A stretch of 64,000 bases of DNA from Candidatus Brocadiia bacterium (lineage in GTDB: Bacteria > Planctomycetota > Brocadiia > CAIUPP01): the NCBI GenBank assembly GCA_050015075.1, contig JBEKCB010000026.1:12526-76525 (forward strand). Direction: 5' to 3'. Positions 16,948-49,488 of this stretch are shown piece after piece (within the stretch, counting starts at the first letter, position 1; every line of letters begins with the position of its first letter). The notes under the pieces were generated by a model. That model was given only the letters and a program-made list of their open reading frames with translations, was not told where the DNA came from and made no database searches. Position numbers and translations under genes: made by a program.

Positions 16948-16997
16948 CAACCGGGATTTGCGATGTGGCCGCTCTCCACAGGACGGTCAGGCGTCAC
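16948..16997 (-). repeat. Leader-only copy of the shared cargo promoter/leader element
   Basis: Matches 49403-49452 (caaccgg...tggccgctctccacaggrcggtcag). Confidence 0.65.
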
Positions 16998-17001
16998 CTC
17001 C

Positions 17002-17406
17002 TCAGAGGTACACCCCTCTGCCGACCCGCTTGAATCGTTTGTCTTTCGAGAGCGTCATGCTGACAATCTTCCGCAAATTCTTGGATTTGCTCTTGTAACC
17101 AGCCGCCAGAACTGCGTCAATGGCTTCGGCAATGGTCAACTTCCCTCTGGTTTGGATGGCTTCCACCAACACGCTGCTCAGGCTGCCCTTTCTCGCCGGC
17201 TTCACGGCTCTTCGTGCTCCCTTCGGCCTGCCCGGCTTCCTGCGAGCAACGGCCACCGGCTTCACAGTGCCTAGAGCCTCCAACTCGGCAATTTGGCAAT
17301 TGAGCGCGTCCCGCGCAGCGATGAGCTTCGGAAGTGCTCTCTGACGCCGAACGATCTCCCTCTTCAGCTCCTCGACCGACACCTTCGCGAGCTTTGCTCT
17401 CGGCAT
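17002..17406 (-). CDS. Small basic DNA-binding protein, copy 2
   Basis: Colinear paralog of 15413-15826 from MPRAKLAKVSVEELKREI; GGAGG RBS. Confidence 0.75.
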   Translation of the reverse strand: MPRAKLAKVSVEELKREIVRRQRALPKLIAARDALNCQIAELEALGTVKPVAVARRKPGRPKGARRAVKPARKGSLSSVLVEAIQTRGKLTIAEAIDAVLAAGYKSKSKNLRKIVSMTLSKDKRFKRVGRGVYL

Positions 17407-17537
17407 AGGAGCGACCTCCAAAGGATGATAATCAGCGGCCCTCGCCCTTACTCCGGGCACTGACAGGGCACAATAGCCAGCCAAGGCAGAAAAAGCAACA
17501 ACGGCGAAGCGTCGCCTCGATCCCACCGTTGTGCCGG

Positions 17538-18221
17538 TCAGTCATGTTGGATCGCTTCCCAGAGTTCCTTGTTGAAAGCTGCATGCCGCGACGGGCAGTT
17601 CTCCCTATGGCAAACCTCGCAACTTCGAAAGTCCACCTCCGTAGGGAAAAGTACGCCCGAGACTGTCTTGTTCGGGATCATCAGGAATGAGTCCGTCAGC
17701 CTGACTCCAATCGCCTGCTCAACGTTACCCAGGAGAGCAAACAGCCCTCGCTGCTGTTCAATGGGCCACACCGATGCATCGCCGGAACCGGGCCGCATGA
17801 TTGCTGTCTTGCCCAGGCGGAACCTGCGGTGCAGATGATCGCTGAGCTGGCTGTTCGCAGCACCAAGCAAGTGGGTCTTGATCAAGTCCCACCAGAACTC
17901 CTTCAGCATGTCCCCTCGCGCGGGAGACTTCTCATCCATCTCGCGTCCGCAGGTCGCAACCATGGGAAAAATGCGTTCGCTGGACGCCAGGTTCCTGCTC
18001 AAGGTTCGGCTTGTGAAAGAGATGCCCCCGATTACCACGGTGTCGCCGGCTCTGCCATCCACAAACGACACGGTGTAGGCCGCTCTGGGTTTTCCGACTT
18101 CCATTGCCGCGGCCATTAAGGCTCTCAATTCCTTCGCATCGTCGGATCCTGGTTCAACATGCGCCTGCTTCATCAATTGGACGGCATCCAAAGAAAATGG
18201 AATCTCGTTCAGGATTTCCAT
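17538..18221 (-). CDS. Stand-alone B12-dependent methionine synthase activation-domain-like protein
   Basis: VATCG, MRPGS, WPIEQQ, IGVRLTDSFLMIPNKTVSG, C-terminal CEVC...CPSR. Confidence 0.8.
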   Translation of the reverse strand: MEILNEIPFSLDAVQLMKQAHVEPGSDDAKELRALMAAAMEVGKPRAAYTVSFVDGRAGDTVVIGGISFTSRTLSRNLASSERIFPMVATCGREMDEKSPARGDMLKEFWWDLIKTHLLGAANSQLSDHLHRRFRLGKTAIMRPGSGDASVWPIEQQRGLFALLGNVEQAIGVRLTDSFLMIPNKTVSGVLFPTEVDFRSCEVCHRENCPSRHAAFNKELWEAIQHD

Positions 18222-18772
18222 CTCATCTCCCTTAGCGCAACGATAGGGATCAGCGGCTTGAGCAATCGCTAGAAGGCCCGGAACGAGGCCGCAACTTTTC
18301 CATCGTTCAGATGCCGTGCTCATGGTATAGCGCCACTGCCGCTTTGTCAATGTCCGCTCTAAGGAACGCAGCGCGACCTATTGGAAAGGAGAACATTCTC
18401 ATGGACATTCGGCCTGTTCGATGAGGAAGATACCGCCGAAGTGAAGGCGGTTGGGGAAGAACCAGACACGCAGCAGTGGAACTCACTTTGCTGGTGAGGC
18501 ACGGTGAATCCGCTGTCCGCAGCGAGTGCAATGCCAGGCGGGGTCATCATCTGTACTGGTATAGTCCAATTACGCCAATCCGCCTCCTCTTCCCAAAAAG
18601 AGCGCCGCCACAAGTCGTTACCCGACTGGCAGGCCTGCCACGACTGACTTTCCGGGTAGGGGGCGGAGCGGAATGGCAGAGAGCGGAGGAGCAGCAGGCG
18701 GCGCGACGGCGCAGGGGAGAGGTTCGCCGGCGCGCGGCCTGCCCGGCCCCGACCGAACGAAGCGGGGGCTAA

Positions 18773-21700
18773 TTAATTGCCGAGGGGCGCTTGAATCGCA
18801 CCGGCCGTTCGTTGGGCAGACGTGGGCTTAACCCCGGCGAAGTCGCGCAGGAAAGGACCGTCGAATTCCCAGGCGTATAACTCTTCGATCGTGGTTTGCG
18901 CGTCGGCGAGGGTGCCCTGGGCGAGCCGAAGAAAATCGAGCGTGCCGTCGAACCAGCGGCCGGTCGGGGTGCCCGCGACGTAAAGATCGCCGTCGTTGGC
19001 GAGCGACACAGAGGCAGCGATGCCGCGGGCGCCGACGTCTTTTCGACCGTCGAGATAAATAGTCAGTTGGGGGATCGCGCGATCCAGTTCGGCGATGACG
19101 TGATGCCACTTTCCATCGCTGACTCTTGCGCGGCTTTCAACTGCAGCGGAAGCTCCGGGGCCTTGAACGCTGAAACGAATCCGGCCGGCGCTGCTGAGGG
19201 TCAGGCTGTAGCCGGCGCCCTGAAGCTTCTCGATCAGCACGCCGCCCGTGCACTCGGGCGCGGCTTTGAAATGGACTTCAATCAGCAGGTTGCCCGTGTA
19301 GATCTGCGGGTTCTTTAAGGCTGCGCCCTCGACCGTGCAGTCCTCGGGCTGCGCCCTTTCGTGCTGGCTTTTTTTCAGGTCACGAAACGAGAACGGTTTC
19401 ATAATCTCAGCATTGGCGAGGACGGCATATTGCTTCCTGGCGGCGGAGAAGTTGAGGGCGCCGGCGGTCCAATCTTGCAGCGGGCCGTTGGTGTAATCGG
19501 CGGCGGTGATATGAACTCCCTTCAGCGCGTACATGGGGCGGTCGCGGTAGGTGTCGCGCGAGACGAAGTAATCGGCCATGTACCAGTGCTCGTCCATAAG
19601 GTGGGTGGGGTCGTCTCCGGGGCGGCAGAAGTTCCATTCGCCGACGACGCCGAAGAGGGACCACGGGACGAACACCTTGGCGCCATGAAACGGGAAACGG
19701 AAAACGTGCTTCGTGCTGCGCGATTCGTCGGGCGTGACGTCCGGCGCGGGGCGGAAGTCGCCGTGGGCGGGATCGCGCAAAGGCGGCTGGCGAGCGACGA
19801 CGCCGAGATCGGTCAGGAGCGCGTCGTTTGCAACGAGGGTCGCCTTAAAGTCATCGAAGGAATGGAGCCAGCGACCGGATGGTTCAAGAACGCCCATTTC
19901 GGCGAAGTCGTAGAACACGTTGCCGCCATAGGCGTCGGAGGCGAGATCGAAGCGTTTTCGCGAAGGGCGCGCGGCTTGGGCTTCGCCTTCAGCGGCGGTC
20001 TTGGCCGGGTCGGCGTGGCGCAGGACAAACTGGCCGATCCCGCACCAGATATTGGCGAGATACTTGTTGCGGCCGGCCTCGGGTTCCTGGCGGCGCGAGC
20101 CGGTGTAGTAATTGTAGACGGTGTTGTTAAAAAAAGTGTTCTGATAACTGATGATTTCCTGGAAGGCGGAGCAATTCACGACGGGACTCTCGACGTCCTT
20201 CGCTTTGCCCCAGGCGATGTTGTTGAAGTGGTAATTTTTGAAAGCGCCGTCGAGGTAATAGGCGTGACCGAACCCCGCGCTATCATGGCTGTACCGCGCC
20301 CAGTTTTGATAGCCGAGCGCGTTATAGGAAATGTTGTCGAACACGTAGAATGGGCCGCCTTGCCAAGTCTCGATCCCGCCGTAATCGTTGCAGTTGAGCA
20401 TCGATTCCCAGACTTTGTTGTGATGAATCAGCAGGCGCGTGAACGGCACATCGCCCCAGCACCCGTTGACTTTCGAGCCGTGAACGTCAATCCCCTGCCC
20501 GTAACTGCGTTCGATGATATTGCCGGCGATCTCGAGGGTGCGCGCGCCGCTGACTTCCATGCCCGTGCCGGTGTTGTAGCGGGCGGGGCGGCGGCCGGTT
20601 TCGAGTGAGTGATTTCGATAGATACGCACGTCGCCCAGCCGGCCGCGAAGCTGGGCGTAGCCCCAGGCCGAGCCGTCGGAAACCGACAGGATGCCATCGT
20701 CGGTGAAGCGGAAATCGTTGTCCTCGATGCGGACATCGTCGACGCGCTGGCCGGCGAGGATGGAGCGGATGCGAATGGGGAAGAAGACGTGTTCGAAGAG
20801 ACAGTTGGCTATGCGGATATCTTTGCCTTCGCCCCAGACGCGGACAGCGCCGGGAAAGGCTTCGGGGCGGAAGGTCCAGGGTTCCGTGTTGAAATTCCAG
20901 GGAGCCGAGGTGATGTCCCATTCGGGCTGCGTGAAGCGAAAAGTGAGGCCGGTGATCTCGAGGTGTTCAACCTTTTCGCCGTCGATCAAATTCATTCGGC
21001 GGCCGGCTTCGATCTGCATCGTGTTCGGGTCTGCATCACCGGGGGGACGCAGATAAAGACGGCCGCCGGCGCCCTTCTTCTCGAACCAATACTCGCCTTC
21101 CGAATCGTCGAGGTACTGCGGTTTGTCTTCGAGGTAGTAGCGCATGTTGCGCATGACGACGTCGCCGGTACCGCCGCCCGTCCAGCCACCGAAGCCCAGC
21201 CCGTGATGCTCCAGGTCGACCACCTCGACTTCGGTCGGGTAAGGGGCGCTCATGACCCAGCCGTATTCGGGCCAGATTATGGCCCCTTTGAAATAGCTCG
21301 CCGGCTTGTCTTTGATGTGCTGCGTATCAATGCCCAGGTGCATTTCGGTGCCGCGGGCATCCTTGATCGTATTGCCGAACGGCTTGCCCGGATTGTCCCA
21401 GACCCACCATTCGCTTTTGACATCGTCGGGGTTGGAGACTTTCCATTTGGGCACGCGCGCGAGCGGCAGGCGGAGGATTTTGCCGTCCTGGCTGACACTC
21501 CAAACACAGCGTGGGGCGAAATCCAGGTCCGCCCACCAGACGAGTTGCGGCTCGGGAATGTCCGGGTGCGTGGCGCCCCGTTTCCAGCTCAGGACGCGTT
21601 CGGAACCACAGAGCACGGCTTCGCCCTTGCCCCACGACGGATCGCTCGTGAGGCGAACCGGCGCGCCGGAAACTCCGGGTTCCTTCACGCGGAGGGTACC

Positions 21701-22183
21701 GCGATAGGTGGCCCCGCGTTTAAAAATAAACGTCCGAATGCCGGAAGCAGAAGCGGCGTTCGCGGTGGCATTCGGGTCCCAGGGATGATGTTTCCATGGC
21801 CTGGCCGGGGCGTCGCCGGGGTTGGCATCGCTGCCGCCTTCGAAGTCAATGTAGCGAACCGGGTCGCTCTTCTGAAATACAAATGGGCGCGGCGCCCAAG
21901 TCAGGTCGCCTTTTGGATCCACGGCCGCGTAGCTGTCCTGCCAGCTCCAGTGATCCTGGTTTGCTGACGGTGAGGCTTCCGAGAATCCGCAATTGGAGAT
22001 AAGGGCCAGGACCAAAAGCAGACCAAGAGACTCGCTCCTCATCGGAGCGATTCTAGTTCTGGACCGCTGCCAGGCCAATCCGGAGAAACTGATAGATTGG
22101 GGAATCGCCATTTCTCCCCTTCGCCCGGTCAGTCCTGGTGTTTCACCCAGCGCGCTTCGGAGGCGTTGAAGTCGGAATTTCAT
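18773..22183 (-). CDS. Large secreted right-handed beta-helix protein with C-terminal LamG-like domain (putative polysaccharide-active enzyme)
   Basis: Parallel beta-helix repeats (IRIANCLF, NIIERSYG, DYGGIETWQ, YYLDG); C-terminal DGKWHHV...IYLDG; true start probably 22111 or 22042. Confidence 0.8.
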   Translation of the reverse strand: MKFRLQRLRSALGETPGLTGRRGEMAIPQSISFSGLAWQRSRTRIAPMRSESLGLLLVLALISNCGFSEASPSANQDHWSWQDSYAAVDPKGDLTWAPRPFVFQKSDPVRYIDFEGGSDANPGDAPARPWKHHPWDPNATANAASASGIRTFIFKRGATYRGTLRVKEPGVSGAPVRLTSDPSWGKGEAVLCGSERVLSWKRGATHPDIPEPQLVWWADLDFAPRCVWSVSQDGKILRLPLARVPKWKVSNPDDVKSEWWVWDNPGKPFGNTIKDARGTEMHLGIDTQHIKDKPASYFKGAIIWPEYGWVMSAPYPTEVEVVDLEHHGLGFGGWTGGGTGDVVMRNMRYYLEDKPQYLDDSEGEYWFEKKGAGGRLYLRPPGDADPNTMQIEAGRRMNLIDGEKVEHLEITGLTFRFTQPEWDITSAPWNFNTEPWTFRPEAFPGAVRVWGEGKDIRIANCLFEHVFFPIRIRSILAGQRVDDVRIEDNDFRFTDDGILSVSDGSAWGYAQLRGRLGDVRIYRNHSLETGRRPARYNTGTGMEVSGARTLEIAGNIIERSYGQGIDVHGSKVNGCWGDVPFTRLLIHHNKVWESMLNCNDYGGIETWQGGPFYVFDNISYNALGYQNWARYSHDSAGFGHAYYLDGAFKNYHFNNIAWGKAKDVESPVVNCSAFQEIISYQNTFFNNTVYNYYTGSRRQEPEAGRNKYLANIWCGIGQFVLRHADPAKTAAEGEAQAARPSRKRFDLASDAYGGNVFYDFAEMGVLEPSGRWLHSFDDFKATLVANDALLTDLGVVARQPPLRDPAHGDFRPAPDVTPDESRSTKHVFRFPFHGAKVFVPWSLFGVVGEWNFCRPGDDPTHLMDEHWYMADYFVSRDTYRDRPMYALKGVHITAADYTNGPLQDWTAGALNFSAARKQYAVLANAEIMKPFSFRDLKKSQHERAQPEDCTVEGAALKNPQIYTGNLLIEVHFKAAPECTGGVLIEKLQGAGYSLTLSSAGRIRFSVQGPGASAAVESRARVSDGKWHHVIAELDRAIPQLTIYLDGRKDVGARGIAASVSLANDGDLYVAGTPTGRWFDGTLDFLRLAQGTLADAQTTIEELYAWEFDGPFLRDFAGVKPTSAQRTAGAIQAPLGN

Positions 22184-22195
22184 TTATGCCCACCG

Positions 22196-22254
22196 TCCAC
22201 ATGACGTTCAGCCATCACGGGTCGCATTCTGGCTACCAGAAACCCGCTTGTCAA
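22196..22254 (-). promoter_or_regulatory. Shared cargo promoter/leader, copy upstream of the beta-helix gene
   Basis: TTGACA-17 bp-CAGAAT, then GCGAC..GTGATGGCTGAACGTCATGTGGA. Confidence 0.7.
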
Positions 22255-22395
22255 ACGGAAGTCGCGTGGCGAAGGGAATTTCCATGCTCTTCTTCCAGCC
22301 GTTCGGCTTGCCCCGTTGTAAGAATTACTCACTTTCAGCATCCGAGTAAAAGCTGACTTTCCTGTGACGCGCCCCTAATTCTTACAGGAAATAAT

Positions 22396-22556
22396 ATGGC
22401 CGAAAACACGAATCGTTTCCTCCGGCAGTTGGACATACTCCCGCCGGAGAAGATACAGTTCCCCATTGTTGTCATCGGAGCCGGGGCCATCGGGTCGGCC
22501 ACGGTCGTCACGCTGGCGAAAATGGGCTGCTCAAGCATCACTGTCTGGGACTACGA
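22396..22556 (+). pseudogene. ThiF/E1-like adenylyltransferase, N-terminal fragment
   Basis: RFLRQLDI...VVIGAGAIGSATVVTLAKMG...ITVWDY, after which the family pattern stops. Confidence 0.75.
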
Positions 22557-22688
22557 GAGGCGGACTCATCTCCTTCGGTCACGCCCACCTGCAAAGCGGC
22601 CGAAGAACGTGGTGCCTCCCTCAGGGTCAATCACGTCAATTGCACCCCCCGGCTTCGGTGATGAGCGAGTGAGTCACCGATATCCGCA

Positions 22689-24050
22689 CTATGATCGCTC
22701 GAGGCAAGCACCGTTGCCGGCGATGACCTTTCGGTACCACAGCGCCGAATCTTTGAGGATGCGCTTCTGGGTCGCATAGTCGAGGAAGATCAAACCGAAC
22801 CGCTCTTTTACGCCCTCCGCCCATTCGAAATTGTCCGTGAGCGACCACTGGAAGTAGCCGCGCACGTCGACGCCATCCGCGATAGCCCGGCGCAAACTCG
22901 ACAGGTAGCGCTGGAGGAAGTCAATTCGTTGCGGGTCGTGGACCTTGCCGTCGAGCGAAACCCAGTCGGCGCCGGACATGCCGTTCTCGGTCACGACGAG
23001 CGGCAGCTTATAGCGCTCCCAGTAAAACTTCGGTCCCCAGTAAAGAGAATCGGGGGTCACCGCCCATCGGTACGCTGTCAGGGCATGCCCCAAGGGAGGC
23101 GGGACCGTCTCGGGGCGGCCATCCTTTCCGGCGCGGACGGTCTGGCCCGAGTAGATGTTGACGCCGAAGAAGTCCAGCGGCTGGTGGATCGTCTCCATGT
23201 CGCCGGCACGGATGGGCGGCATCTCGGCTTCGAAGAGTTTCAGTCCGTCCTCAGGGTACTTTCCTTTCAGAACCGGCTCAAGCCACCAGGTGTTGGTCCA
23301 GATATCTTTGCCGACGATATGGAACATGGCTTCGTGGGCCGCGCGAATGTCTCGCATGCTTCGACTGGCGGGCATTGAAACGACGCCGACCGGAGCATAG
23401 CCGACCCGGGGCTCTTCCTTCGAGCGTGCGCGGATGGCCTTCACCGCTTTCCCGTGCGCCAGGAGGACATTATGCGCGATTCTCAGAATTTCGGCGAAAC
23501 CGAGCTTGTCTCCCGGCGCGTGAATCCCCGAAGAGTGACCAAAGCCGACGAAGCACTGCGGCTCATTCAGCGTCATCCAGTGCTTTACACGGTCCGAGAG
23601 CCTGTCCACAACAAGAGCCGTGTATTCAGCGAACCAGTCGGAGCTTGCAGAGTTGAGCCAGCCGCCACGGCAGTAAAGGCGGTACGGGTAGTCCCAATGA
23701 AACAGAGTGACCCAGGGCTGAACCTTCGCGGCGAGAAGTCCATCCACAAGTCGGTCGTAAAAGTCGAGGCCCTTCGCGTTTACCGGCCCGACGCCCTCAG
23801 GGAGCACTCGCGTCCATGAGATGGAGAACCGATATCCCTTCAGGCCGATCTCCCTCATCAAGGAGACGTCTTCTTTCCAGCGGTGATAGTAGTCGCAGGC
23901 GACGTCGCCATTCTGGTTTTTCCACACGGTCCCTTGCTTGCGACAGAACATGTCCCAGACGGACGGTCCTTTGCCATCCTCTCGCGCAGCGCCTTCGACC
24001 TGATATGAAGCGGAAGCGGCGCCCCAGACGAAGCTCTTTGGAAAGCGCAT
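22689..24050 (-). CDS. GH1 beta-glucosidase
   Basis: FVWGAASASYQVEG, YRFSISW, TLNEP (acid/base), VTENG (nucleophile), DNFEWAEG. Confidence 0.95.
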   Translation of the reverse strand: MRFPKSFVWGAASASYQVEGAAREDGKGPSVWDMFCRKQGTVWKNQNGDVACDYYHRWKEDVSLMREIGLKGYRFSISWTRVLPEGVGPVNAKGLDFYDRLVDGLLAAKVQPWVTLFHWDYPYRLYCRGGWLNSASSDWFAEYTALVVDRLSDRVKHWMTLNEPQCFVGFGHSSGIHAPGDKLGFAEILRIAHNVLLAHGKAVKAIRARSKEEPRVGYAPVGVVSMPASRSMRDIRAAHEAMFHIVGKDIWTNTWWLEPVLKGKYPEDGLKLFEAEMPPIRAGDMETIHQPLDFFGVNIYSGQTVRAGKDGRPETVPPPLGHALTAYRWAVTPDSLYWGPKFYWERYKLPLVVTENGMSGADWVSLDGKVHDPQRIDFLQRYLSSLRRAIADGVDVRGYFQWSLTDNFEWAEGVKERFGLIFLDYATQKRILKDSALWYRKVIAGNGACLERS

Positions 24051-24159
24051 GTCGTTCTCCTTTCCTGGAAGTCGCCAATTTCGTCGGTAATCCTTACGGC
24101 TTGGCCGAGGCACAACACGGCTGCGGCCATTCTTGACCGCAATGTGCCCTATGCCGTTT

Positions 24160-24218
24160 TCGACATGACGGTCAGCCATCAAGTGTCGCATTCTGCCTGT
24201 CAGAATCCAGCTTGTCAA
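24160..24218 (-). promoter_or_regulatory. Shared cargo promoter/leader, copy upstream of GH1
   Basis: TTGACA-17 bp-CAGAAT, then GCGACACTTGATGGCTGACCGTCATGTCGA. Confidence 0.7.
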
Positions 24219-24312
24219 GGAGAGGCCGCGTGTAAGAATCACTCGCTTTTAAAGTCCGAGTAAGCTTGCTGACTTTCCTGTCTCCCACCCCCGGTTCTTA
24301 CAAGGAGATGAA

Positions 24313-24388
24313 ATGGTTGAGAACACGAACCGTTTCCTTCGGCAGATGGACATCCTGCCGCCAGAGAAACTGCAGTTCCTCATCGTAG
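24313..24388 (+). pseudogene. Second, shorter ThiF N-terminal fragment
   Basis: MVENTNRFLRQMDILPPEKLQF, near-identical to the 22396 copy; AGGAG RBS. Confidence 0.75.
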
Positions 24389-24389
24389 C

Positions 24390-24545
24390 AAACTCGGCAG
24401 CCGGCGTTCACTGCGGCCGGCCGAGGAAGGGGGCTGAACATTGCCGAGGCTCTAAGGCTTCACGTTGAGGGGCTGAGGGCGCGCGGGATCGGGCAGAAGC
24501 TGGGTGTTTCCTACAGCACCGCTCGTCGGGCGCTGAAGGCTGTTT
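24390..24545 (+). pseudogene. C-terminal remnant of a serine resolvase/invertase (GRPRK plus HTH), frameshifted
   Basis: AAGVHCGRPRKG, frameshift in a G-run, then LNIAEALRLHVEGLRARGIGQKLGVSYSTARRALK. Confidence 0.6.
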
Positions 24546-24607
24546 CACGGGTCCCTGCTACGAAAACCCGTGCCTTTTCGATCGCAACAGGCGGCCGCGC
24601 TCTTTAG

Positions 24608-26122
24608 CTATCGAAACAAAATGTCTTTGGTGTGCCCGCTGATTTCCACCTCGGGGGAATCGTATCGCGCAATTCTGCCGTGGCGCACGACATTTTCAAA
24701 GAGGACGTTTTCGACGGGGTGTTCCGCGTCCGGACCGTGGACCCTGATTCTCCCGCAACTGCCCAGGAGATCTCCGGTCACAAAGACATTCCTGAATACG
24801 CAGTTCCGGATCATCCCGGGTGTCGGCTTCTTCGCCCACGGAGTCACCTTCGGCACGACCTCGATGACCCACTCCTGGCCTTCATGGTTGATCTGGATGT
24901 CCTCGAACAGAACGTTCTCGATCGGCATATCCTCGTCCGGTTGGAGGGAAATGCAAGTGGGGAGATCGTCGCCGCTGTTCCCGCTGCCGCTCCCGCTCCC
25001 GTAGCTCGTCATGTAATGGAGAACCTGGATGTCCTTGAACGTGAGATTGCGGAAGGCTTCGGCCCTGCATTCGGCTCCGATTCGCCACACGTGCGCGCGG
25101 TCGTTCCATAACAAGGTCCGCCTTACGAGAACGTTATCCACCGCCTGGTTCCCCGCGTAGCCGAGGCCCTTGATCGCAATGCAGTCGTCCTCACTCCGGA
25201 CGAAGCAGTCCTCCACGAGCACGTCGCGCGTGTTGCAGATGTCAATCCCGTCGTTGTTTTGGGAGCGCACCGCGACGATTTTGACGTTTCGAACCGTCAC
25301 GTTCCTGCCGCCCCTCATCCACAGGTTGTAGCCCCAACTGTCCTTAATGATGATTCCCTCGACGAGGACATTCTCGCAGGTGTCGAGATCAACCGGGGCG
25401 CGGGTCGGCCCCTTGTGCCGCTCGTAGTCCAATCCGTCCAGAATACCGCGGCCCAGGATCTTCACGTTCCTGCCTTTTGCGTGAACACCGCCTTTCACCA
25501 CGGCTCCGCCGGCGATGTACAGCGTCTCGTTGTCGCCAAGTTCTATGGCGCCCGCCTGGTGGACTCCCGGGCCGAAGTACTTCACCCCCGCGTCGCGCGG
25601 ACTCGGAGAGGAGGCTTCGATCGGATTGGCAAAGAGGAGCAGCGGACCGTGCTTTCCATCGGGCTCGATGGAGAGCTGGCACGGAGCAGCCTGAAGCATG
25701 AACCTCATCACGCCCCTGAGCGTGTTCGGGTTGGCGGGGACGGGATAGGGTCTGACTCCCTTTGATTCGGGCCGGATGACCACGTCCCTGAGCCACTGCC
25801 GCGACGATTCGACCTCGACCTCCACGCTTCCTGAGAAATCGAAGTACGCGAAGGAATAAGGACCGCCGAACGGGGGCGAGTAATTCTGCTCATAGACTTT
25901 CCCGCGGTAGACGGGCACCGGAGCGCCGTTGACCTTGATCAGATAGTCGTCCGAAAGCTCCACCCCTTCCGGAGCCTGATAGACCACGATGTTTCCGGTG
26001 GGCATTTTAGATGCCTCCCTTTTCTGTGGTTCTTCGCTGCCAGTCGTCGCGTCCGCCGCAGCGGACGGGCCCGCCGAGGCCGCCACGACGATGGCCGCCA
26101 GGAAAAGCCATGTTCTTCGCAT
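24608..26122 (-). CDS. GH28-like secreted beta-helix glycoside hydrolase
   Basis: Signal peptide MRRTWLFLAAIVVAASAG; YFGPGVH, NNDGID, SEDDCIAIK. Confidence 0.85.
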   Translation of the reverse strand: MRRTWLFLAAIVVAASAGPSAAADATTGSEEPQKREASKMPTGNIVVYQAPEGVELSDDYLIKVNGAPVPVYRGKVYEQNYSPPFGGPYSFAYFDFSGSVEVEVESSRQWLRDVVIRPESKGVRPYPVPANPNTLRGVMRFMLQAAPCQLSIEPDGKHGPLLLFANPIEASSPSPRDAGVKYFGPGVHQAGAIELGDNETLYIAGGAVVKGGVHAKGRNVKILGRGILDGLDYERHKGPTRAPVDLDTCENVLVEGIIIKDSWGYNLWMRGGRNVTVRNVKIVAVRSQNNDGIDICNTRDVLVEDCFVRSEDDCIAIKGLGYAGNQAVDNVLVRRTLLWNDRAHVWRIGAECRAEAFRNLTFKDIQVLHYMTSYGSGSGSGNSGDDLPTCISLQPDEDMPIENVLFEDIQINHEGQEWVIEVVPKVTPWAKKPTPGMIRNCVFRNVFVTGDLLGSCGRIRVHGPDAEHPVENVLFENVVRHGRIARYDSPEVEISGHTKDILFR

Positions 26123-26380
26123 TGCTCTGGCGCCTCCTGTTCCCATAAGCCCGCAAGCTGCCTCCGGTTCCCTTAATCGGCTGTTGCCTATAGAACAGTC
26201 CGTTCCCTGGGGTGGCATTCTATCCTTACTGTGGCTCCTGTCAAGGCCCTTTCCGGCGCCGAGCCGAACGGCAATTGGGCGATTGACTTTGACGTGCCGG
26301 GGTGGTAAAGCCATGCAGGCACAGCAACCGCAGCCTGACGCAGAGCCGGACGATTCCGGCGGCCCAAGGAGGAGAGCAGG

Positions 26381-27889
26381 ATGGAAAGGCTCATTATCCG
26401 CGCCAGACGCGGCGACGGTCAGCCGCTGGCCGCCGAGGGGTTGGATTCGCTCTACCTGACCGACCTGAAGCGAAACCCTCTCCGAAAGCCTTACGGCCCG
26501 GTCGAGTCCGGGCAGGCCGTCATCGAGACGGCGGCGGCGCCGTTCGTCATCGTGGCGGACGTCCCCGTGGCCGGGTTCGGCGCCGGCTTCTTTTTCGCCG
26601 ACAACGAGGGCCAGGGCTACCGGCTGGGCGGCGAGATTGACCTTTACGCGGAGCTGGCCCGGAGCCGTCTGCACGCGGTCCAAACTCGCCGCAGGGCGGC
26701 GGAAAAGGCCGGGGCCGTCACCCCTGCAGGCACCGCGCGGCGGCTGGAGCGCGCTGCCGAATCCCTGCGAAAAGCGGCCGGCCTCGCCGCAGGATCGGCC
26801 GCTGCCGCGCAACTCGCCGAGGAGTCTCTCTGCGAATCGCTCTGGGCCGGTGAGGAACTGGTGCTGGAAGCCGCCCGGCAGGCGATTTCCCGTCGCGGGC
26901 CGCGAAAAGGCTTCCTCTTCGGCTGCAATGCGTTCGGCCTGTCCCACGGGCCGAAATATACCCGGCCGTTCGAAGCGGTCTTCAACTTCGCGACCGTCCC
27001 GTTTTACCGGCGCGGGTTTGAGCCGGAAGAGGGACGCCCCGACCCCGCCCGCGCGGACGCGATCACCGCGTGGCTGAACGGAGCAGGCATCGCCGCCAAA
27101 GGACACCCGCTCACCTGGTTCCACGAGGCCGGGGTGACCGAGTGGATGAAGCGCAAGACCTTCGACGAGAACCTCGCGTCCGCGCGGGAACGCTGCCGGT
27201 CGCTCGCCCGCCAATACGCCGGGCGGATTGACCGGTGGGACGTCATCAACGAAGCCCACGACTGGGCGAACGAACTGGGCTATTCGCAGGAACAGCTTCT
27301 CGACCTGACGCGGGCCTCGTGCGAGGGCGCCAGGGAAGGGAACCCAAAAGCCCAGACCGTCGTGAACAACTGCTGCGTCTTCGGCGAGTACGCCGCCACG
27401 AGCAAGACCTACTTCCGACAGGAGCAGCGGCCGCTGCGCACGCCGCATCAGTATCTGCGCGCCTGCCTGTCGGCGGGGCTGGACTTCGACGTGATCGGCC
27501 TCCAGCTCTACTACCCCGGCTATGACCTGTTCGAAATCGCCCGCCTTCTGGACTCGTACGCGGACCTCGGCAAGCCGCTGCACATTACGGAGTTGGGCGT
27601 CTCCTCAGCGCCCGGTGCGGACGAGCGGGCCTATGTCAAGAAGATCAGTCCCTACTCGTGGCACGGCCCCTGGAGCGAGGCCGTTCAGGCTGACTGGGTG
27701 GAGCAGTTCTACACCCTCTGCTACAGCAAGCCCGCCATCGAGGCGATCACGTGGTGGGACTTTGCCGACGCCGGGCACTTCTGGCCGCACGGCGGGTTCC
27801 TCCGCCCCGACCTCAGGCCGAAGGAATCCTACCGGCGCCTCAAGGGCGTGATTGAACGATGGGGCGCGAACGAGAGGGCAGGCCGCTGA
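26381..27889 (+). CDS. GH10-like (endo-1,4-beta-xylanase family) protein
   Basis: KGHPLTW, WDVINE, IGLQLY, LHITELGV, ITWWDF; no signal peptide. Confidence 0.85.
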   Translation: MERLIIRARRGDGQPLAAEGLDSLYLTDLKRNPLRKPYGPVESGQAVIETAAAPFVIVADVPVAGFGAGFFFADNEGQGYRLGGEIDLYAELARSRLHAVQTRRRAAEKAGAVTPAGTARRLERAAESLRKAAGLAAGSAAAAQLAEESLCESLWAGEELVLEAARQAISRRGPRKGFLFGCNAFGLSHGPKYTRPFEAVFNFATVPFYRRGFEPEEGRPDPARADAITAWLNGAGIAAKGHPLTWFHEAGVTEWMKRKTFDENLASARERCRSLARQYAGRIDRWDVINEAHDWANELGYSQEQLLDLTRASCEGAREGNPKAQTVVNNCCVFGEYAATSKTYFRQEQRPLRTPHQYLRACLSAGLDFDVIGLQLYYPGYDLFEIARLLDSYADLGKPLHITELGVSSAPGADERAYVKKISPYSWHGPWSEAVQADWVEQFYTLCYSKPAIEAITWWDFADAGHFWPHGGFLRPDLRPKESYRRLKGVIERWGANERAGR

Positions 27890-35223: not shown

Positions 35224-35280
35224 CGCCTTGGTCTCCTCCGCTGAACGCTTTCATACGTAGATACGCAATATCGGTCGCCA

Positions 35281-36015
35281 TCATGCGTGGGCCCGCGAAA
35301 AAATCTGACGAAGCTCCTGCAATTCCTGCTCGACCTCCTCCTCCGCATATTCGCTCATGATTCCACGCAGAATCCGCGCAAACATGCGCTTCGCAGTAAT
35401 AAGCAGATTTCCCGCCTGCGTCGGCGATTCCAGCCCCAGTTTCTGGACCAGCGTCTCATATGGAAGAGGCTCGACTTCGTCGAGGATGGGCTGGACAATG
35501 CGACTCTCGAAGATGATCCACAGGTCGTCGCGGCCGCCTGCCTTGCATTCGGCCTGCATGTCGCGCAGCGCACGAGCGAGAATCTGCCGGCCCCATTCCA
35601 CGTCGAAAGCCTCGGAAGGCCCGTCCGCAGGGAAGGCTTCGTCCGGATGCTCTTGGATGTCCAGCAGCCGGGCGGGGGATCGTCTTCCGGTCTTTTCGCG
35701 TCGTATCTCGCTACGGACGTAATTATTGAGCGCAGTCAACAGAAACGTCCGGAACTTGCCGCGCTGCGCGTCGGCGCGAGCCACCAATTGCCGCTCCAGA
35801 ACTTTGCTCGATATAAACCCCTGAAGGAGGTCTTCGGCTCTCTCGGGATCCGTGCCTTTTTGAACCAGGTGGGCTTTAAGAGCCGGCATATACTGCAGGA
35901 GCAGTTGTTCCAGCGCAGCCGTTCGGTCTTCGGGCTGGCCCTTTCCGGCCCGCAGGACGAGCGACCATCGAGTAGCCGGGAAGAACCGTTGAGGCGTCCC
36001 CTCACGGCCGTTCAT
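35281..36015 (-). CDS. ECF sigma factor of the kinase-associated type
   Basis: FPATRWSLVLRA, AEDLLQGF, RGKFRTFLLTAL, FDVEW. Confidence 0.88.
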   Translation of the reverse strand: MNGREGTPQRFFPATRWSLVLRAGKGQPEDRTAALEQLLLQYMPALKAHLVQKGTDPERAEDLLQGFISSKVLERQLVARADAQRGKFRTFLLTALNNYVRSEIRREKTGRRSPARLLDIQEHPDEAFPADGPSEAFDVEWGRQILARALRDMQAECKAGGRDDLWIIFESRIVQPILDEVEPLPYETLVQKLGLESPTQAGNLLITAKRMFARILRGIMSEYAEEEVEQELQELRQIFSRAHA

Positions 36016-36270
36016 AGCGTCCCCTCACTTGCGCGGCGCAGCAGATTATCACCGGTGCCCCCGCGATTTGCAAGCAAAAAGATCTGCGCAGGATTTGGTC
36101 GGTCGCTGCGTAAATATCGGTGAGAACCGGCATCATCTCCGGTTTTTGAAAGAATAAGAAAGGCAATGAAGGCGTCATCGAGACGGTCGGCGATTGTCGC
36201 GGCAGGGGTGCTTAACTTCCGCAGGTAAAGTACCATTAAAAGTATTATAAGAACAGGAAATCGGCGATTC

Positions 36271-36395
36271 GTGATAATCGGTGGAGGAGCCGCCGGCCTC
36301 GCCGCAGCTTACGAGCTCGTGGGAAACGGCTGCACTCCCATTATCCTTGAGAAGACAGGCAGCCTCGGCGGCCTTGCCCGGACGGAAAGCTATAT
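36271..36395 (+). pseudogene. FAD-dependent oxidoreductase N-terminal fragment
   Basis: IIGGGAAGLAAAYEL...ILEK...GGLARTESY, after which the family pattern stops. Confidence 0.65.
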
Positions 36396-36745
36396 CGCCC
36401 GCATCGCCGCCGCTCATTTCACGGGCCCCGCCTGGCGTACTACCGGTAGTGCAAGAGCTGAGTCATTTGTCGGCGTCGCGTTATCAAAAGTGCGCTGCTC
36501 CGCCTGCTTGTCTGGCACGCCAATTGCGCTTGTGCTGAATAAGGCCAACGCAGCGCGATCGGCGGACATTGGCTCTCAGAAGCTTGGCTTCTCAACGGGT
36601 TATGGATGAACGAGTTACGACTTGCGATCGGCCGTTGCATCAGCCAGGGGATTGTTGCAGCATGGAACAAGAAATGCATCACAGTGTGTTTTTTCGAGCC
36701 GGATCACGATCCACCTGAGATATTCGATTTTTTCTGGAGCAAAGC

Positions 36746-39700: not shown

Positions 39701-41584
39701 CTGAAGTCTAAATCGGCCAAGACGATCGAGACTCTGAAGGGCGAAAGCGAAAGCCACGCCGACGCGCTGGCCCGCGCTCGCGAGGAACTGGCCGAGTCGG
39801 TCACGCTCGCCAAAGCACAGCAGAAGAAAGCCGCCAAGGCGGAAGCGGAAGCCGCCTCACTCGCTCGCGAACTGCAAACCGTGAAGTCCGAATCGGCCAA
39901 GACGATGGAGAAGTTGAAGGCCGGAAGCGAAAGCCACGCCGACGCACTGGCTCGCGCTCGCGAGGAACTGGCCCAAGCCGAAACGCTCGCCAAAGCTCAG
40001 CAGAAGAAAGCCGCCCAAGCGGAAGCGGAAGCTGCGTCACTCACTCGCGAACTGGAAACGGTGAAGTCCGAATCGGCCAAGGCGTTGGAGACGTTGAAGG
40101 CCGGAAGCGAAAGCCACGCCGACGCGCTGGCCCGCGCTCGCGAGGAACTGGCCGAGTCGGTCACGCTTGCCAAAGCTCAGCAGAAGAAAGCCGCCAAGGC
40201 AGAAGCGGAAGCCGCGTCACTCGCTCGCGAACTGCAAACCGTGAAGTCCGAATCGGCCAAGACGATGGAGAAGTTGAAGGCCGGAAGCGAAAGCCACGCC
40301 GACGCGCTGGCTCGCGCTCGCGAGGAACTGGCCCAAGCCGAAACGCTCGCCAAATCGCAGCAGAAGAAAGCCGCCCAAGCGGAAGCGGAAGCCGCGTCGC
40401 TCGCTCGCGAACTGCAAACCGTGAAGTCCGAATCGGCCAAGACGGTGGAGACGTTGAAGGCCGGAAGCGAAAGCCACGCCGACGCGCTGGCTCGCGCTCG
40501 CGAGGAACTGGCTTCGGCTGCCCAACTCGCAAAAGTTCAGCAAGACCGGCTCGCCAAAGTCGAAGCGAACGCCGCCTCTGTCGCGAACGAACTGCAAACA
40601 GTGAAGTCTGAATCGGCCAAGGCGATCGAGACGCTGAAGGGCGAAAGCTCGCGGCACGCCGACGCGGTAGCTCGCGCGCGTGAGGAACTGGCCCAAGTCG
40701 CCACGCTCGCCAAAGCTGAGCAGGAGAAAGCCGCCTCACTCGCTCACGAACTGCAACAGGTGAAGTCTGAATCAGCCAAGACGATCGAGACGCTGAAGGG
40801 CGAAAGCACAAGCCACGCCGACGCGGTAGCTCGCGCGCGTGAGGAACTGACCCAAGCTGTCGCGCTCGCCAAGGCTGAGCAGGAGAAAGCCGCCTCACTC
40901 GCTCACGCACTGCAACAGGTGAAGTCTGAATCAGCCAAGACGATGGAGACGCTGAAGGGCGAAAGCACAAGCCACGCCGACGCGGTAGCTCGCGCGCGTG
41001 AGGAACTGACCCAAGCCGTCGCGCTCGCGAAAGCCCAGCAGGAAAGAACCGCCCGCGCGGAAGCGGAGGCGGCCGCAATCGCTCGCGAATTGCAAACGGT
41101 GAAGTCTGAATCGGCCAAGATGACGGAGACGTTGAAGGGCGAAACCGGCGGCCAGGCCGACGCGCTCGCCCAGGCGCGCCACGAAGCGACCGAGTCCGCC
41201 AAGTTCGCGAATGCGCAGCAGGCCAAAGCCGCAGAGGCGGAGAAACGGGCGGCTTCGGCAGCGCAGGAACTGGAACTGGAAGTGAAAAAGTCGGCTGAAG
41301 CCCGCCGGGCATGGGAAAAGGAGCGGGCCGGGTTCGTGTCGCGCGGCGGGTTTGCCGCGGCGATCGAACAGGCCCGCCGGCAGCTCGAGAATGAAACCTC
41401 GGGGCGCAAGCAGGCGGAGGCCGATCTCGAGAAGGCCCGCGCCGACGCGACCGCGTCCGAAAAGATCCAATCCCAGATGCGCCTGGAATTGGAGGCGCTT
41501 CGGCGCGAACGGGAGCAGTCCAGCGCCCCCAGAAAAGAGGAATCCCAGCAAGTCACAGAAGTTGCTGAAAAGAAGGCGCCTTGA
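36746..41584 (+). CDS. 1612-aa protein: N-terminal PAS-like domain plus very long tandem-repeat coiled coil
   Basis: LEGLLYPIVII...FMNDAARRLL...EIEWRGEKATQVSISDVT; Ala/Glu/Lys-rich rod with 60-aa repeats. Confidence 0.8.
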   Translation: MAHLSDSALMVRPEPVPAPAKTPQPAASPVQDQSALEGLLYPIVIIKRQACICFMNDAARRLLVEGLDRRLAAHIHDNPDMGAITQVRFTLQNGHDLFLEIRLGEIEWRGEKATQVSISDVTPYQGMIQGLLKKLETQKEALEELTARRSEAEQQLGAHSEALAKLQAELEAESAARTKTQESAGLREELDLATQEKARLRSDVTALIRVREELKESRLRLQKQVEELQAAAPRPQEQDTAGHAELEERARSLAAELEKTRSELELEARKSAEAGRTWETERAGFSSQAAALAASLEQARRQTDEETSQRRQAQVDFEKAREAASASEEIQSKLRQELEALRRDRAQISSHGEEKSAEVAELLEENKRLAHDLADRAVSEAGAHESEAGRANEKLAAQVEALQSELSAAAAERAGLESSAAALAAALEQARQQTEAEASRRRQAQADLEKGHAAAATSEKTRSELGQESELLWRNLEHLSALGEVQSLEGVALLEENKRLARDLAEHTPRESVLAAVCDALQEKAEALARELAAARQETERAVSEAHARELESGQVNEKLAAKIETLQSELSATATDREELQREIVNRLADDSSVRDEMQAEVAQRQSLEKEIAALRHDLAASERARAEAAAIFETLKAEARSHADVLACAREEVAEAVTLAKAQQKKAAQAEAEAASFARELQQVKSESAKTMETLKAGSESYADALARAREELAEAATLAKAQQEKAAGAEAEAASLADELQTLKSESAKVIETLKDESASHADAAARAREELAEAATLAKAQQEKAAQAEAEAASVAHELQTLKSKSAKTIETLKAGSESHADALARAREELAEAVTLAKAEQKKVAKAEAEAASLARELQTVKSESAKTMETLKAGSGSQADALARAREELAEAAQLAKVQQDRLAQGEAEAASLASELQTVKSESAKMMETLKAGSGSQADALARAREELAEAAQLAKVQQDRVAKAETDAASVAHELQTLKSKSAKTIETLKGESESHADALARAREELAESVTLAKAQQKKAAKAEAEAASLARELQTVKSESAKTMEKLKAGSESHADALARAREELAQAETLAKAQQKKAAQAEAEAASLTRELETVKSESAKALETLKAGSESHADALARAREELAESVTLAKAQQKKAAKAEAEAASLARELQTVKSESAKTMEKLKAGSESHADALARAREELAQAETLAKSQQKKAAQAEAEAASLARELQTVKSESAKTVETLKAGSESHADALARAREELASAAQLAKVQQDRLAKVEANAASVANELQTVKSESAKAIETLKGESSRHADAVARAREELAQVATLAKAEQEKAASLAHELQQVKSESAKTIETLKGESTSHADAVARAREELTQAVALAKAEQEKAASLAHALQQVKSESAKTMETLKGESTSHADAVARAREELTQAVALAKAQQERTARAEAEAAAIARELQTVKSESAKMTETLKGETGGQADALAQARHEATESAKFANAQQAKAAEAEKRAASAAQELELEVKKSAEARRAWEKERAGFVSRGGFAAAIEQARRQLENETSGRKQAEADLEKARADATASEKIQSQMRLELEALRREREQSSAPRKEESQQVTEVAEKKAP
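38651..41180 (+). repeat. Intragenic tandem repeat: 12 x 180 bp, 2 x 159 bp, plus a partial unit
   Basis: Unit starts at 38651, 38831, ... 40631 (180-bp spacing), 40790 and 40949 (159), 41129 (180). Confidence 0.95.
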
Positions 41585-47809: not shown

Positions 47810-47951
47810 TGCTTCCTTGCGGAAATAGGCGTCCTATTTCCGCAAAGAAGCATGACCGCAATAAGTCGCGTCGTTAGACCGAGTTATACGTTCCGTTGGG
47901 CCGTGTTTAGTTGCGTAAATTGGTACGCCAATTTACGCAACTAAACACTAG
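47806..47951. mobile_element. 146-bp MITE-like element bounded by CTAG
   Basis: CTAG at both ends; 24-bp imperfect terminal inverted repeats, each part of its own hairpin (21-bp perfect stem at 47903-47948). Confidence 0.7.
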
Positions 47952-47985
47952 TTCCGCGCGGAAGGCATGCGCCCCTGCGCCGCGG

Positions 47986-49383
47986 CTATTCCGGGTCCGC
48001 GACCGGCAGGTTTCGCGCGGCGTCGTCGAGCACCAGCGCCCAGTCCATCTGATCGCCGGTGTATGGCGGGACGAAGACCTGGACGCCGGTGTTGGGGTAC
48101 TCGCCGATGAATTTCCAGCGGCCCGTCCGCGGGTCATACCAGTGCGCTTTGACCTTCGCGCCGGCGAGCCGGTCCATCCGCACGGTGAAGGGATGGCCGA
48201 ACGGCGTGTACGCCAGCGCGAAGGCGCCGTCCGCCGCGCGCGCGGACTGGATGTGGTCCTCGAGAATCCCCTGGCCGAAGTGGATGAGGCCCTGGTCCGG
48301 CACGAGTTGGTGCCAGGGCCGCATCTCCAGCAGGCGTCGCAGCAGGCCCATGCAGTACGAGCCTTCATAGTTGATCGCCTCGCGCCAATTGTACGTTGCC
48401 GTCTGCTCCTTCATGAACAGCGAATAATCGGCGTAGGACAGCCTGGGGTTGCCGGCCTCGAAGAACTGCCAGATGTCCTGCGCGCCGTAGCCCAGCCCCG
48501 CCGCCCCGGCGAGCATGTTCCAGTACCCCGCCTCGCGGATCTGGTGCGCGTTGATGCGCGGCTGCTTGCTGTTCGCCGAAGGGATGTGGTTCTCATACCG
48601 GAACTCCATGTCAATCGTCGGCTTCGGCGGCTGCATCAGGTAGTCATGCGTCACGAACTCGTAGCACAGCGTGCCCCACTGCCATGAGGACTGGATCGTG
48701 TTGAAATCGAGCCAGTCCATGTTGTGAAGCCAGAAGGAAGAGGAATATCCCTGAAAACCCGCGGAAGGACCGTGACCGTGATAGGAGACCAGTTGCCGTC
48801 CTTCGCTGCCTTCCTTCAGCCCTCGCGCCATCGCGGTCCAGACGGGGAAGTCATCCATCGGCGACCGGTCCCCGCCCAGGTACCAGATCACCGCATTGTC
48901 CTTATACCGGCTTCCCAGAAACTTTCCGAAGGCGAATGCGTTGGATTCGGTGAAGACCTGCTCGTCATACCCGACCTTGCGCACGTGCTCGCCGACGCAG
49001 GTGACGATGCCCATCACCAGCCCGAGTTCGTTCGCGCGGTTCACGATGTAGTCAATATTCCGGAAGAAAGCCTCGTTGGGCTTGGTCGGGTCGCGGTCGA
49101 GCAGCGGATAATCCCCGTAGAGGTTCGCCGCCTTCAACCCGCGCAGGCAATACGCCTGGATCGCCGTGAAACCGCGCGCGACGCGGTTCTCAAAATAGAC
49201 GTCCACCTCTTCGTGGTTCAGCCGCTTGAACAGCGTCCATGCGGTGTCGGCCAGGTAATAGAACGGCCTGCCCTCCGTGGTCATCAGATACCGATGATTG
49301 GGCGACACCTTGAATCGCAGGCTCTTCACAGAACCCGGCGACGGAAACAGCGGCTTGCTCAGCCTGACGAACGACATGGCCAT
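47986..49383 (-). CDS. DUF4038 / GH140 (apiosidase-like) glycoside hydrolase with C-terminal beta domain
   Basis: PFYYLADTAW, IWYLGGD, WLDFNTIQS, PKPTIDMEFRYE, WYDPRTG, DWALVL. Confidence 0.85.
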   Translation of the reverse strand: MAMSFVRLSKPLFPSPGSVKSLRFKVSPNHRYLMTTEGRPFYYLADTAWTLFKRLNHEEVDVYFENRVARGFTAIQAYCLRGLKAANLYGDYPLLDRDPTKPNEAFFRNIDYIVNRANELGLVMGIVTCVGEHVRKVGYDEQVFTESNAFAFGKFLGSRYKDNAVIWYLGGDRSPMDDFPVWTAMARGLKEGSEGRQLVSYHGHGPSAGFQGYSSSFWLHNMDWLDFNTIQSSWQWGTLCYEFVTHDYLMQPPKPTIDMEFRYENHIPSANSKQPRINAHQIREAGYWNMLAGAAGLGYGAQDIWQFFEAGNPRLSYADYSLFMKEQTATYNWREAINYEGSYCMGLLRRLLEMRPWHQLVPDQGLIHFGQGILEDHIQSARAADGAFALAYTPFGHPFTVRMDRLAGAKVKAHWYDPRTGRWKFIGEYPNTGVQVFVPPYTGDQMDWALVLDDAARNLPVADPE

Positions 49384-49402
49384 GAGAGACTCCTGCCTGA
49401 CC

Positions 49403-49488
49403 CAACCGGAATTTCCCGGATGGCCGCTCTCCACAGGGCGGTCAGCCTTCACATGTCGCAGTCTGACCATCCGAATCCAGCCTGTCAA
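49403..49488 (-). promoter_or_regulatory. Shared cargo promoter/leader, copy next to the island right end
   Basis: TTGACA-17 bp-CAGACT, then GCGACATGTGAAGGCTGACCGCCCTGTGGAGAGCGGCCA. Confidence 0.7.

Follow-up and report, generated by a model that had tools for sequence, protein, structure and literature searches.

Why would one promoter-like sequence, together with the leader that follows it, stand ahead of several unrelated genes? The question is raised by a stretch of 64,000 nucleotides (nt) from Candidatus Brocadiia bacterium (assembly GCA_050015075.1, contig JBEKCB010000026.1, positions 12,526 to 76,525 of the forward strand), which as a whole is called the window here and has a GC content of 61.8%. 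An initial annotation of this DNA had placed four such sites on the minus strand and, read directly in the sequence, all four lie as it had described. The explanation that we favour, with a probability of about 0.55, is that they are copies of an old and discrete sigma-70-type promoter and 5'-untranslated region (5'-UTR) module, which was reused through duplication and recombination and whose leader is separable from its promoter.

The repeated element and the genes behind it

At 22254, 24218 and 49488 the same pattern is read, namely TTGACA, 17 nt, CAGAAT (CAGACT at 49488), GCGAC and then the leader, which after GCGAC reads TGA(T/A)GGCTGA(A/C)CG(T/C)C(A/C)TGT(G/C)GA in all three full window copies (c22, c24 and c49; Table 1). 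A leader without the promoter, c16, is found at 16997-16944 ahead of an MBL gene. With up to 3 mismatches allowed, the leader core GGCTGACCGTCATGTGGA matches the window four times (16992-16975, 22213-22196, 24177-24160 and 49447-49430), against a mean of 0.09 matches in the shuffle control, where four were reached in 0 of 100 shuffles; at the same tolerance TTGACA-N17-CAGAATGCGAC has three matches (22254, 24218 and 49488), the shuffle mean being 0.14 and three being reached in 0/100. A first nhmmer profile, built from the three full window copies, recovered c16 (E=8.7e-9) and also a fifth copy absent from the initial annotation, c12, at 12242-12167 (E=5.3e-8). Another match at 4821-4770 is doubtful (E=0.0084), all remaining window matches had E>1, and a profile made from all eight leaders (five from the window and three from a second genome, see below) gave no extra window match, its best non-member having E=0.93. 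Chance origin of the repeats is excluded by the shuffles and the profile search.

The genes behind the copies are indeed unrelated: the LamG open reading frame (ORF) and the GH1, MBL and GH140 (apiosidase-like) genes belong to different Pfam families. The "beta-helix" label that had been given to ORF 18773-22183 was not confirmed, Pfam having returned Laminin_G domains only. All five copies of the window face the next ORF on the same strand, and so do the three of the second genome. In c49, c16 and L41b, 16-20 nt separate the end of the leader from the start codon, with the Shine-Dalgarno sequence immediately downstream of the leader, and a 5'-UTR of ~130 nt is predicted for the GH1 gene, from the c24 promoter to ATG 24050. 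Measured against the element, the main ORFs occupy three frames, and the conserved block is therefore no N-terminal coding segment common to them. The ORF behind c12 is one of three tandem secreted paralogs on the minus strand (~480 amino acids (aa); the others at 12380-13816 and 13865-15307), with 42-43% identity to the longest and no known family. A terminator-like hairpin closes the upstream paralog gene directly before c12; its arms (12315-12281, minus strand) hold GGCTGACGG and CCATCAGCC, near the leader's own GGCTGACCG, which is possibly a coincidence.

As for the promoter-like part, TTGACA with a 17-nt spacer is present in 5/5 full copies from two genomes (c22, c24, c49, L41a and L41b), and positions 1, 2 and 6 of the -10 hexamer are C, A and T in each of them. 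Four (c22, c24, L41a and L41b) agree with TATAAT at 4/6 positions. The full copies have the -35 and -10 hexamers, 16-18 nt apart, by which sigma-70-type promoters are recognized, and in the alignment of the five the conserved leader blocks follow the -10. We infer that transcription would start at these predicted sites. A second promoter-like site stands directly ahead of the LamG gene (22078-22050), and from this putative promoter a leaderless LamG transcript, independent of c22, is possible.

Another promoter-like sequence of this region lies near the GH28 gene, where a near-consensus TTGACA-16-TAGAAT (11/12) without the conserved leader is found at 26244-26217 (minus strand), ~100 nt upstream of the real GH28 start; the signal peptide of GH28 is at ~26120. 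The long ORF 24608-27583 overlaps the opposite-strand GH10 gene (26381-27889), and only its 3' two-thirds are likely real.

Occurrence in a second genome and age of the family

A collection of genome contigs was scanned with the degenerate 24-mer GSCTGAMCGYCMTGTSGANNNNGG, a too permissive pattern by which at least 119 loci were listed. Against a profile of the window copies only, one of the 119 listed loci (L041) is a true relative and the other 118 are chance matches. This relative lies on contig JBKQWE010000014.1, described as "MAG: Candidatus Brocadiia bacterium" (metagenome-assembled genome); L041 has a GC content of 61.7%, and its positions 1954-2046 match profile positions 3-95 with E=3.5e-17. 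The best of the other 118 listed loci had E=0.0022; the listed matches begin at profile positions 36-52, the region of the scanned 24-mer, and five of those at chance level extend to profile positions 93-105 (L044, L066, L060 and L107). L041 holds three copies inside 4 kb, two of them full (L41a and L41b) and one a leader (L41c) which extends to the edge of the retrieved locus (3968-4024, minus strand); no homolog of the L041 ORFs was found in the window. In a plasmid collection, blastn with the c49 element returned one 32-nt chance match in a Streptomyces record (E=0.09) and nothing more. The element is not described in the literature searched on transcription start sites, promoters and leaders of Planctomycetes, conserved upstream sequences, glycoside hydrolase (GH) regulons and putative mobile promoters. 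A table of Weinberg 2010 (PMC2864571) names a "Rhodopirellula-1" motif, which carries no accession there.

The initial annotation had held the copies to be homologous rather than convergent, and this is borne out, as the similarity spans the spacer, the discriminator and the leader, and as c49 and L41a have the same edges when compared with c22: both drop similarity at query positions 207/208 and 308. The span so shared opens ~20-26 nt ahead of the -35 and closes with the CCGGTTG of the leader end. Over the full element, identity is 61-67% among window copies, 61-65% between the window and L41a and 48-54% to L41b. Because identity within a genome is no higher than between genomes, the family would be old and not the outcome of a recent burst, and recent serial insertion appears unlikely. 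Together, the low identity and the shared edges argue for an old discrete unit as against recent serial insertions or random duplication debris, and the family has presumably been under selection.

How the copies spread

c22 and c24 share an extra 156 nt upstream which are 77.6% identical and are common to these two copies only. The extra homology takes in a divergent intergenic region together with the 5' end of a ThiF-like fragment on the plus strand, and an extended -10-like TGTAAGAAT box stands ahead of both ThiF-like fragments; a 50-nt stretch of the c22 region is absent from c24 and holds CATGGAAATTCCC, which is like the leader 3' end. GH1 is found between two diverged copies of one ~300-nt segment made of the pseudogene 5' end, the divergent intergenic region and the element, the element itself being 84.7% identical between c22 and c24 over 59 nt. 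The shared pseudogene segment points to segmental duplication or to recombination through homology and is unlike the trace of a small element with fixed ends.

The junction of c16 gives a second view of the edges. The paralogous small ORFs 17002-17526 and 15413-15826 (minus strand) are at least 85% identical as far as the stop codon and lose this similarity exactly at the leader 5' edge, ORF 15413-15826 having no leader; the full element is predicted to start transcription close to this junction. The two ORFs are 81% identical in DNA over 300 nt and belong to no family. The promoter-less copies, with c16 set beside a stop codon while the paralog is leaderless and L41c set against the -35 of L41b, indicate that the leader is a separable unit. 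Read by eye, the 12 nt before the -35 (TTCC-S-Y-TTGACA) resemble the leader 3' end (TTCCGGTTGAG), as short terminal direct repeats would. This likeness, the tandem of L41c and L41b and a possible degenerate leader within the 50 nt of c22 that c24 lacks suggest, without statistical support, that units may be able to sit in tandem and recombine.

Table 1. Coordinates of the copies, their downstream genes and associated features (window positions, except L41a-c, which are positions within locus L041)
Feature	Position	Strand	Description
c22, full element	22166..22274	-	-35 TTGACA 22254-22249, 17-nt spacer, -10 CAGAAT 22231-22226, GCGAC discriminator, leader to ~22166
Gene downstream of c22	18773-22183	-	LamG ORF, 1136 aa; likely true start ATG 22042 (MRSESLGLLLVLALIS, signal-peptide-like)
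c24, full element	24131..24238	-	-35 24218-24213, -10 CAGAAT 24195-24190, leader to ~24131
Gene downstream of c24	22689-24242	-	GH1 (Pfam); true start ATG 24050 (MRFPKSFVWGAASASYQVEG; MRFPKSFVWG)
c49, full element	49399..49508	-	-35 49488-49483, -10 CAGACT 49465-49460, leader to 49401
Gene downstream of c49	47986-49488	-	Apiosidase-like (GH140) + Collagen_bind_2 (Pfam); AGGAG, ATG 49383, 17 nt past leader
c16, leader only	16944..16997	-	Begins 5-7 nt past TGA stop (17004-17002) of ORF 17002-17526
Gene downstream of c16	16030-16950	-	MBL (Pfam); start ATG 16929, ~16 nt past leader end
c12, leader with degenerate promoter region	12170..12242	-	No acceptable -35/-10 pair
Gene downstream of c12	10280-12208	-	642 aa, secreted, no Pfam family; likely true start ATG ~11989 (MLRTILALGLSAAAV, signal-peptide-like), from paralog alignment
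L41a, full element	TTGACA at 1961	+	-10 CATGAT; ahead of signal-peptide ORF 2141-3097
L41b, full element	TTGACA at 3973	-	-10 CACAAT; leader end 20 nt before lipoprotein-like ORF 3864-3364
L41c, leader only	4016-3968	-	Last bases CCCGGTTGA abut L41b -35, in tandem
Extra homology at c22	22255..22480	-	Shared with c24 only; divergent intergenic region + 5' end of ThiF-like fragment
ThiF-like fragment at c22	22396-22575	+	MAENTNRFLRQLDILPPEK..IGAGAIGS; Pfam ThiF E=2.5e-6, just below cut-off
Counterpart of extra homology at c24	24231..24386	-	77.6% over 156 nt
ThiF-like remnant at c24	24313-24408	+	32 codons, 69% identity
HTH_23 fragment	24389-24607	+	Transposase-type helix-turn-helix; after c24 ThiF-like remnant
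Second promoter-like site, LamG gene	22050..22078	-	TTGGCC-17-TAGAAT, -10 end 7 nt before ATG 22042
Terminator-like hairpin	12269..12315	-	14-position stem (12 Watson-Crick, 1 G-U, 1 mismatch) + T run
tRNA-Glu(CTC)	8826-8901	+	Left boundary of proposed island
tRNA 3'-half remnant	~49550-49595	+	Putative right att; 38/45 identical to tRNA-Glu positions 32-76

What the leader may do

At the gathering score of Rfam 15 only tRNA passes in the whole window, and the leader has no family match; at E<=10, region 49330-49520 gave three chance-level hits (11-13 bits against thresholds of 35-49) and region 24000-24260 none. Covariance analysis of the leader, with 7-8 sequences, found no significant covariation. 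Two helices were rejected as lacking covariation support, a long-range CUGACCG/CGGUUGG helix with an inner hairpin and a 5' hairpin UGAUGG/CCGUCA. Coding by the leader was rejected for all three frames (no periodicity, frame C holding a conserved TGA), as was a palindromic operator, since c49, c16, c12 and L41b do not preserve the partial dyad in TGATGGCTGACCGTCA, and likewise a sigma-54 or extracytoplasmic function (ECF) promoter within the leader, whose GG/GC and GAAC/CGTC boxes are not spaced as in the consensus motifs.

The leader block is asymmetric and is also present promoter-less between cistrons, at c16. We favour the view that it acts on the transcript, as suggested by this asymmetry, by the orientation of 8/8 copies, by its position beside the ribosome-binding site in three copies and by the promoter-less intercistronic copy.

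The favoured explanation and what weighs against it

In the explanation that we favour, a cassette of ~100-110 nt, kept in at least two genomes, would consist of TTGACA, a 17-nt spacer, the -10, a GC-rich discriminator and ~60 nt of conserved 5'-UTR with the blocks TGATGGCTGACCGTCATGTGGA ... GCGGCCA ... GAAATTCCGGTTGRG. Segmental duplication and recombination would have set its copies ahead of unrelated genes, mostly those of secreted or hydrolytic proteins, which would amount to promoter reuse or capture and not to site-specific cassette insertion. These genes would thereby have a common transcription start and a common leader. Between cistrons the leader would work without the promoter, perhaps by binding a protein or RNA that acts in trans, or through weak structure of its own beside the ribosome-binding site.

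Several findings weigh against this explanation. The -10 of c49 (CAGACT) agrees with TATAAT at only 3/6 positions, c12 has no usable promoter despite the terminator just ahead of it, and the LamG gene's own promoter-like site may make c22 redundant. The downstream genes differ in function, and a different promoter without the leader precedes the neighbouring GH28 gene, so that a substrate-specific regulon is not evident. With regard to structure, RNAalifold on seven sequences gave five pairs at -2.58 kcal/mol, one of them with a double change; single-sequence folds differ among the copies (z = -0.15, -3.98, 0.00, 0.53, -2.08, -0.78 and -1.37, with 2/7 below -2); and hand-drawn helices pair in 78.9% and 78.6% of cells, values equalled by 30/500 and 500/500 shuffles. 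The element of c22 and c24 is barely above its pseudogene flank in identity, and this pair alone would show no selection; the description of the family as old and selected draws on the identity matrix and the shared boundaries, with two genomes and eight copies.

If functional, the element would mark a co-controlled gene set in a poorly studied lineage, where promoters and leaders are almost uncharacterised, and for genetic work in such organisms it would supply a native promoter and 5'-UTR, ready to use and probably strong. It would also be a clean old case of promoter reuse, in which promoter and leader can be distinguished as separate units.

Alternative explanations

A small non-autonomous mobile element, similar to miniature inverted-repeat transposable elements (MITEs) or Correia elements, with an outward promoter and transposing ahead of genes, would account for the discrete edges common to three independent contexts, the presence in two genomes and the tandem of leader, promoter and leader in L041 and possibly upstream of c22. 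The short terminal direct repeats described above and the IS200-like Y1 transposase gene at 54453-55118 would also fit, and promoter-bearing elements of such kind are known (PMC3575422). Yet no consistent terminal inverted repeats are present, the best flank match being equalled by 130-263 of 300 shuffles in 4/5 copies and by 3/300 only at c22, and no target-site duplications were seen at the flanks of c22, c24 and L041. Moreover, the copies are highly diverged, c22 and c24 spread as a larger segment with ragged content, and the leader-only copies break at internal points. We therefore regard such an element as an unlikely source of the copies.

One may go further and suppose that the leader is a lineage-specific riboregulatory element, serving a large post-transcriptional regulon of secreted and hydrolytic proteins, and that the promoter-leader unit acts as portable homology by which foreign genes are captured through recombination. 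We hold this to be speculative and, as it stands, rather unlikely. Were it true, GH1 would have reached its place between the diverged copies of the 300-nt segment by a Campbell-type crossover, the start of c16 would nearly coincide with the predicted transcription start, and the cassette would both recruit and regulate new genes with no dedicated recombinase.

It is quite unlikely that the copies are neutral relics of old segmental duplications, with no function beyond surviving promoter activity. Between c22 and c24 the identity of the element is a little above that of the pseudogene fragment beside it (84.7% against 77.6%), the promoter of c12 is lost, and the region is rich in gene fragments (ThiF-like, HTH_23 and an NAD/FAD-binding stub), all of which relics could explain. 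However, random duplication is not expected to end at identical ~100-nt edges in c49 and in the other genome; TTGACA, the 17-nt spacing and the leader blocks are invariant though overall identity is 48-67%, and 8/8 copies face a downstream ORF.

Could the leader instead be translated? A very short or leaderless upstream ORF (uORF) in frame A (M-A-D/E-R-H/P-V-E/D-x-G-H ...) would then control the downstream gene through its own translation. In fact, a start codon (ATG, or GTG in c49 and c16) lies 8-11 nt after the -10 in 5/5 full copies and is also found in c12 and c16, several of the changes from copy to copy leave the residue unaltered in this frame (CGT/CGC, GTG/GTC, GGG/GGC and CAT/CAC), and at c22 the uORF stop overlaps the candidate ATG as ATGA. 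But the third codon position is not the most variable, mean column entropy being 0.59, 0.85 and 0.84 at codon positions 1, 2 and 3, and L41c has no start codon. The uORF has no conserved end either: its lengths are 11, 15, 16 and 25 codons, it reads in frame into GH1 and GH140, and in c12 it runs to 122 codons. In addition, the T/C change in AAAT(T/C)CCGG is non-synonymous in frame A, and when the first 40 residues of the GTG-extended GH140 ORF were searched against proteins, one candidate came up and nothing scored at E<=10. We consider a regulatory uORF improbable.

Last is the proposal of the initial annotation that an island end carries an inward-facing promoter expressing captured genes, in the manner of the Pc promoter of integrons, and that earlier tandem insertions left the internal copies as their ends. 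Part of the setting that it described does hold. A 40.7-kb stretch is bounded by a tRNA gene and, on the other side, by a direct repeat of the tRNA 3' part, as expected of an island, and the c49 -35 lies ~57-62 nt from the tRNA-derived remnant; the acceptor arm of this remnant, however, differs from that of the intact tRNA and is incompatible with its 5' arm. All five window copies are between the tRNA and the remnant, for which the chance probability is ~0.10, that is (40.7/64)^5. GC content is lower, 57-61%, at 12-26 kb only, against 63-66% in parts but not all of the flanks; elsewhere inside the stretch it is 59-66%, with overlapping values outside.

The gene-capture part fared worse. The core of the tRNA fragment, AAGGGTTCGAGTCC, is exact only at 8874 and 49567 in the window, and with up to 3 mismatches its eight matches compare with 7.05 expected by chance. 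No att remnant stands beside any of the four internal copies; the window copies are 61-67% identical and so not recent, and c22 and c24 are flanked by the duplicated ThiF-like pseudogene fragment instead. In L041, where three copies lie within 4 kb, no tRNA is present. The Pfam scan of 66 ORFs (26+18+22), which excluded ~200 shorter or overlapping frames, showed no integrase or recombinase family and, apart from the IS200-like Y1_Tnp outside the stretch, no transposase family; repeated att-like sequence is absent next to the internal copies, and three genes have a promoter-like copy of their own. An integron-like origin is thus very improbable and no new gene-capture machine is revealed, while the alternative given in the same annotation, a shared operator or leader RNA, fits better.

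Neighbouring features

Just outside the tRNA-bounded stretch, the IS200-like Y1_Tnp gene (54453-55118) is on the plus strand, and a 160-nt copy of the 3' part of this transposase gene, with 86% identity, lies 2.4 kb upstream at 52519-52678. A 1612-aa ORF with no Pfam family (36746-41584, plus strand) contains 13-15 tandem copies of a 180-nt (60-aa) unit, especially at 38572-41349, with 61-86% identity to reference copies; its strand is markedly A-rich, with an AT skew of 0.36-0.38. An NAD/FAD-binding Rossmann stub is found at 36229-36606 (plus strand) and, together with the ThiF-like remnants and the HTH_23 stub, it marks a region that has been repeatedly rearranged. At 29841-36015 (minus strand) there is a cluster with a Wzc/XrtA-type chain-length determinant tyrosine kinase, a Ser/Thr kinase with a NosD-like beta-helix and a weak ECF sigma-like ORF, and the element is upstream of none of these genes.

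Comparison with known systems

With integrons the element shares the use of one promoter type for unrelated, probably acquired genes, and one of its copies is near a repeat that resembles a recombination site. It differs in that there is no integrase among the scanned ORFs, no attC-like sites and no array of promoterless cassettes; whereas an integron has a single Pc, each gene here has its own copy of the promoter or leader. Moreover, the copies are diverged, and at least one pair carried a pseudogene fragment along as it spread.

Also comparable are the 5' leaders and cis-regulatory RNAs that define regulons, which likewise appear as a conserved, oriented 5'-UTR block beside the ribosome-binding site of several genes, also between cistrons; they differ in that the leader described here has no Rfam match and that 7-8 sequences yield no consensus fold or covariation. 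Correia, ERIC and REPIN elements, as cited in PMC3575422, are also short dispersed intergenic repeats, able to supply promoters or to affect neighbouring transcripts. Unlike them, our element has no terminal inverted repeats or strong palindromic hairpin that could be detected, is oriented strictly towards the downstream gene and is highly diverged.

The nearest setting is that of the putative mobile promoters (PMPs) of Nijveen, Matus-Garcia and van Passel (2012, PMC3575422), which in that survey are described as highly similar upstream non-coding sequences before non-homologous genes of one genome. Some are common to several taxa and some contain regulatory RNA motifs, most having no known mobilisation mechanism or Rfam match. 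The survey took positions -150 to -50 relative to the start codon and required at least 80% identity over at least 50 nt. This identity is found here, where the -150 to -50 window was not applied, for c22 and c24 (84.7% over 59 nt) and for c16 and c49 (82% over 50 nt, family D18), all ahead of non-paralogous genes. The family differs from PMPs in that the majority of its pairs fall well short of their identity threshold, with 48-67% across the full element, which would make this family older than typical PMPs, and in that the element takes in the -10 and a long leader, of which leader-only copies exist.

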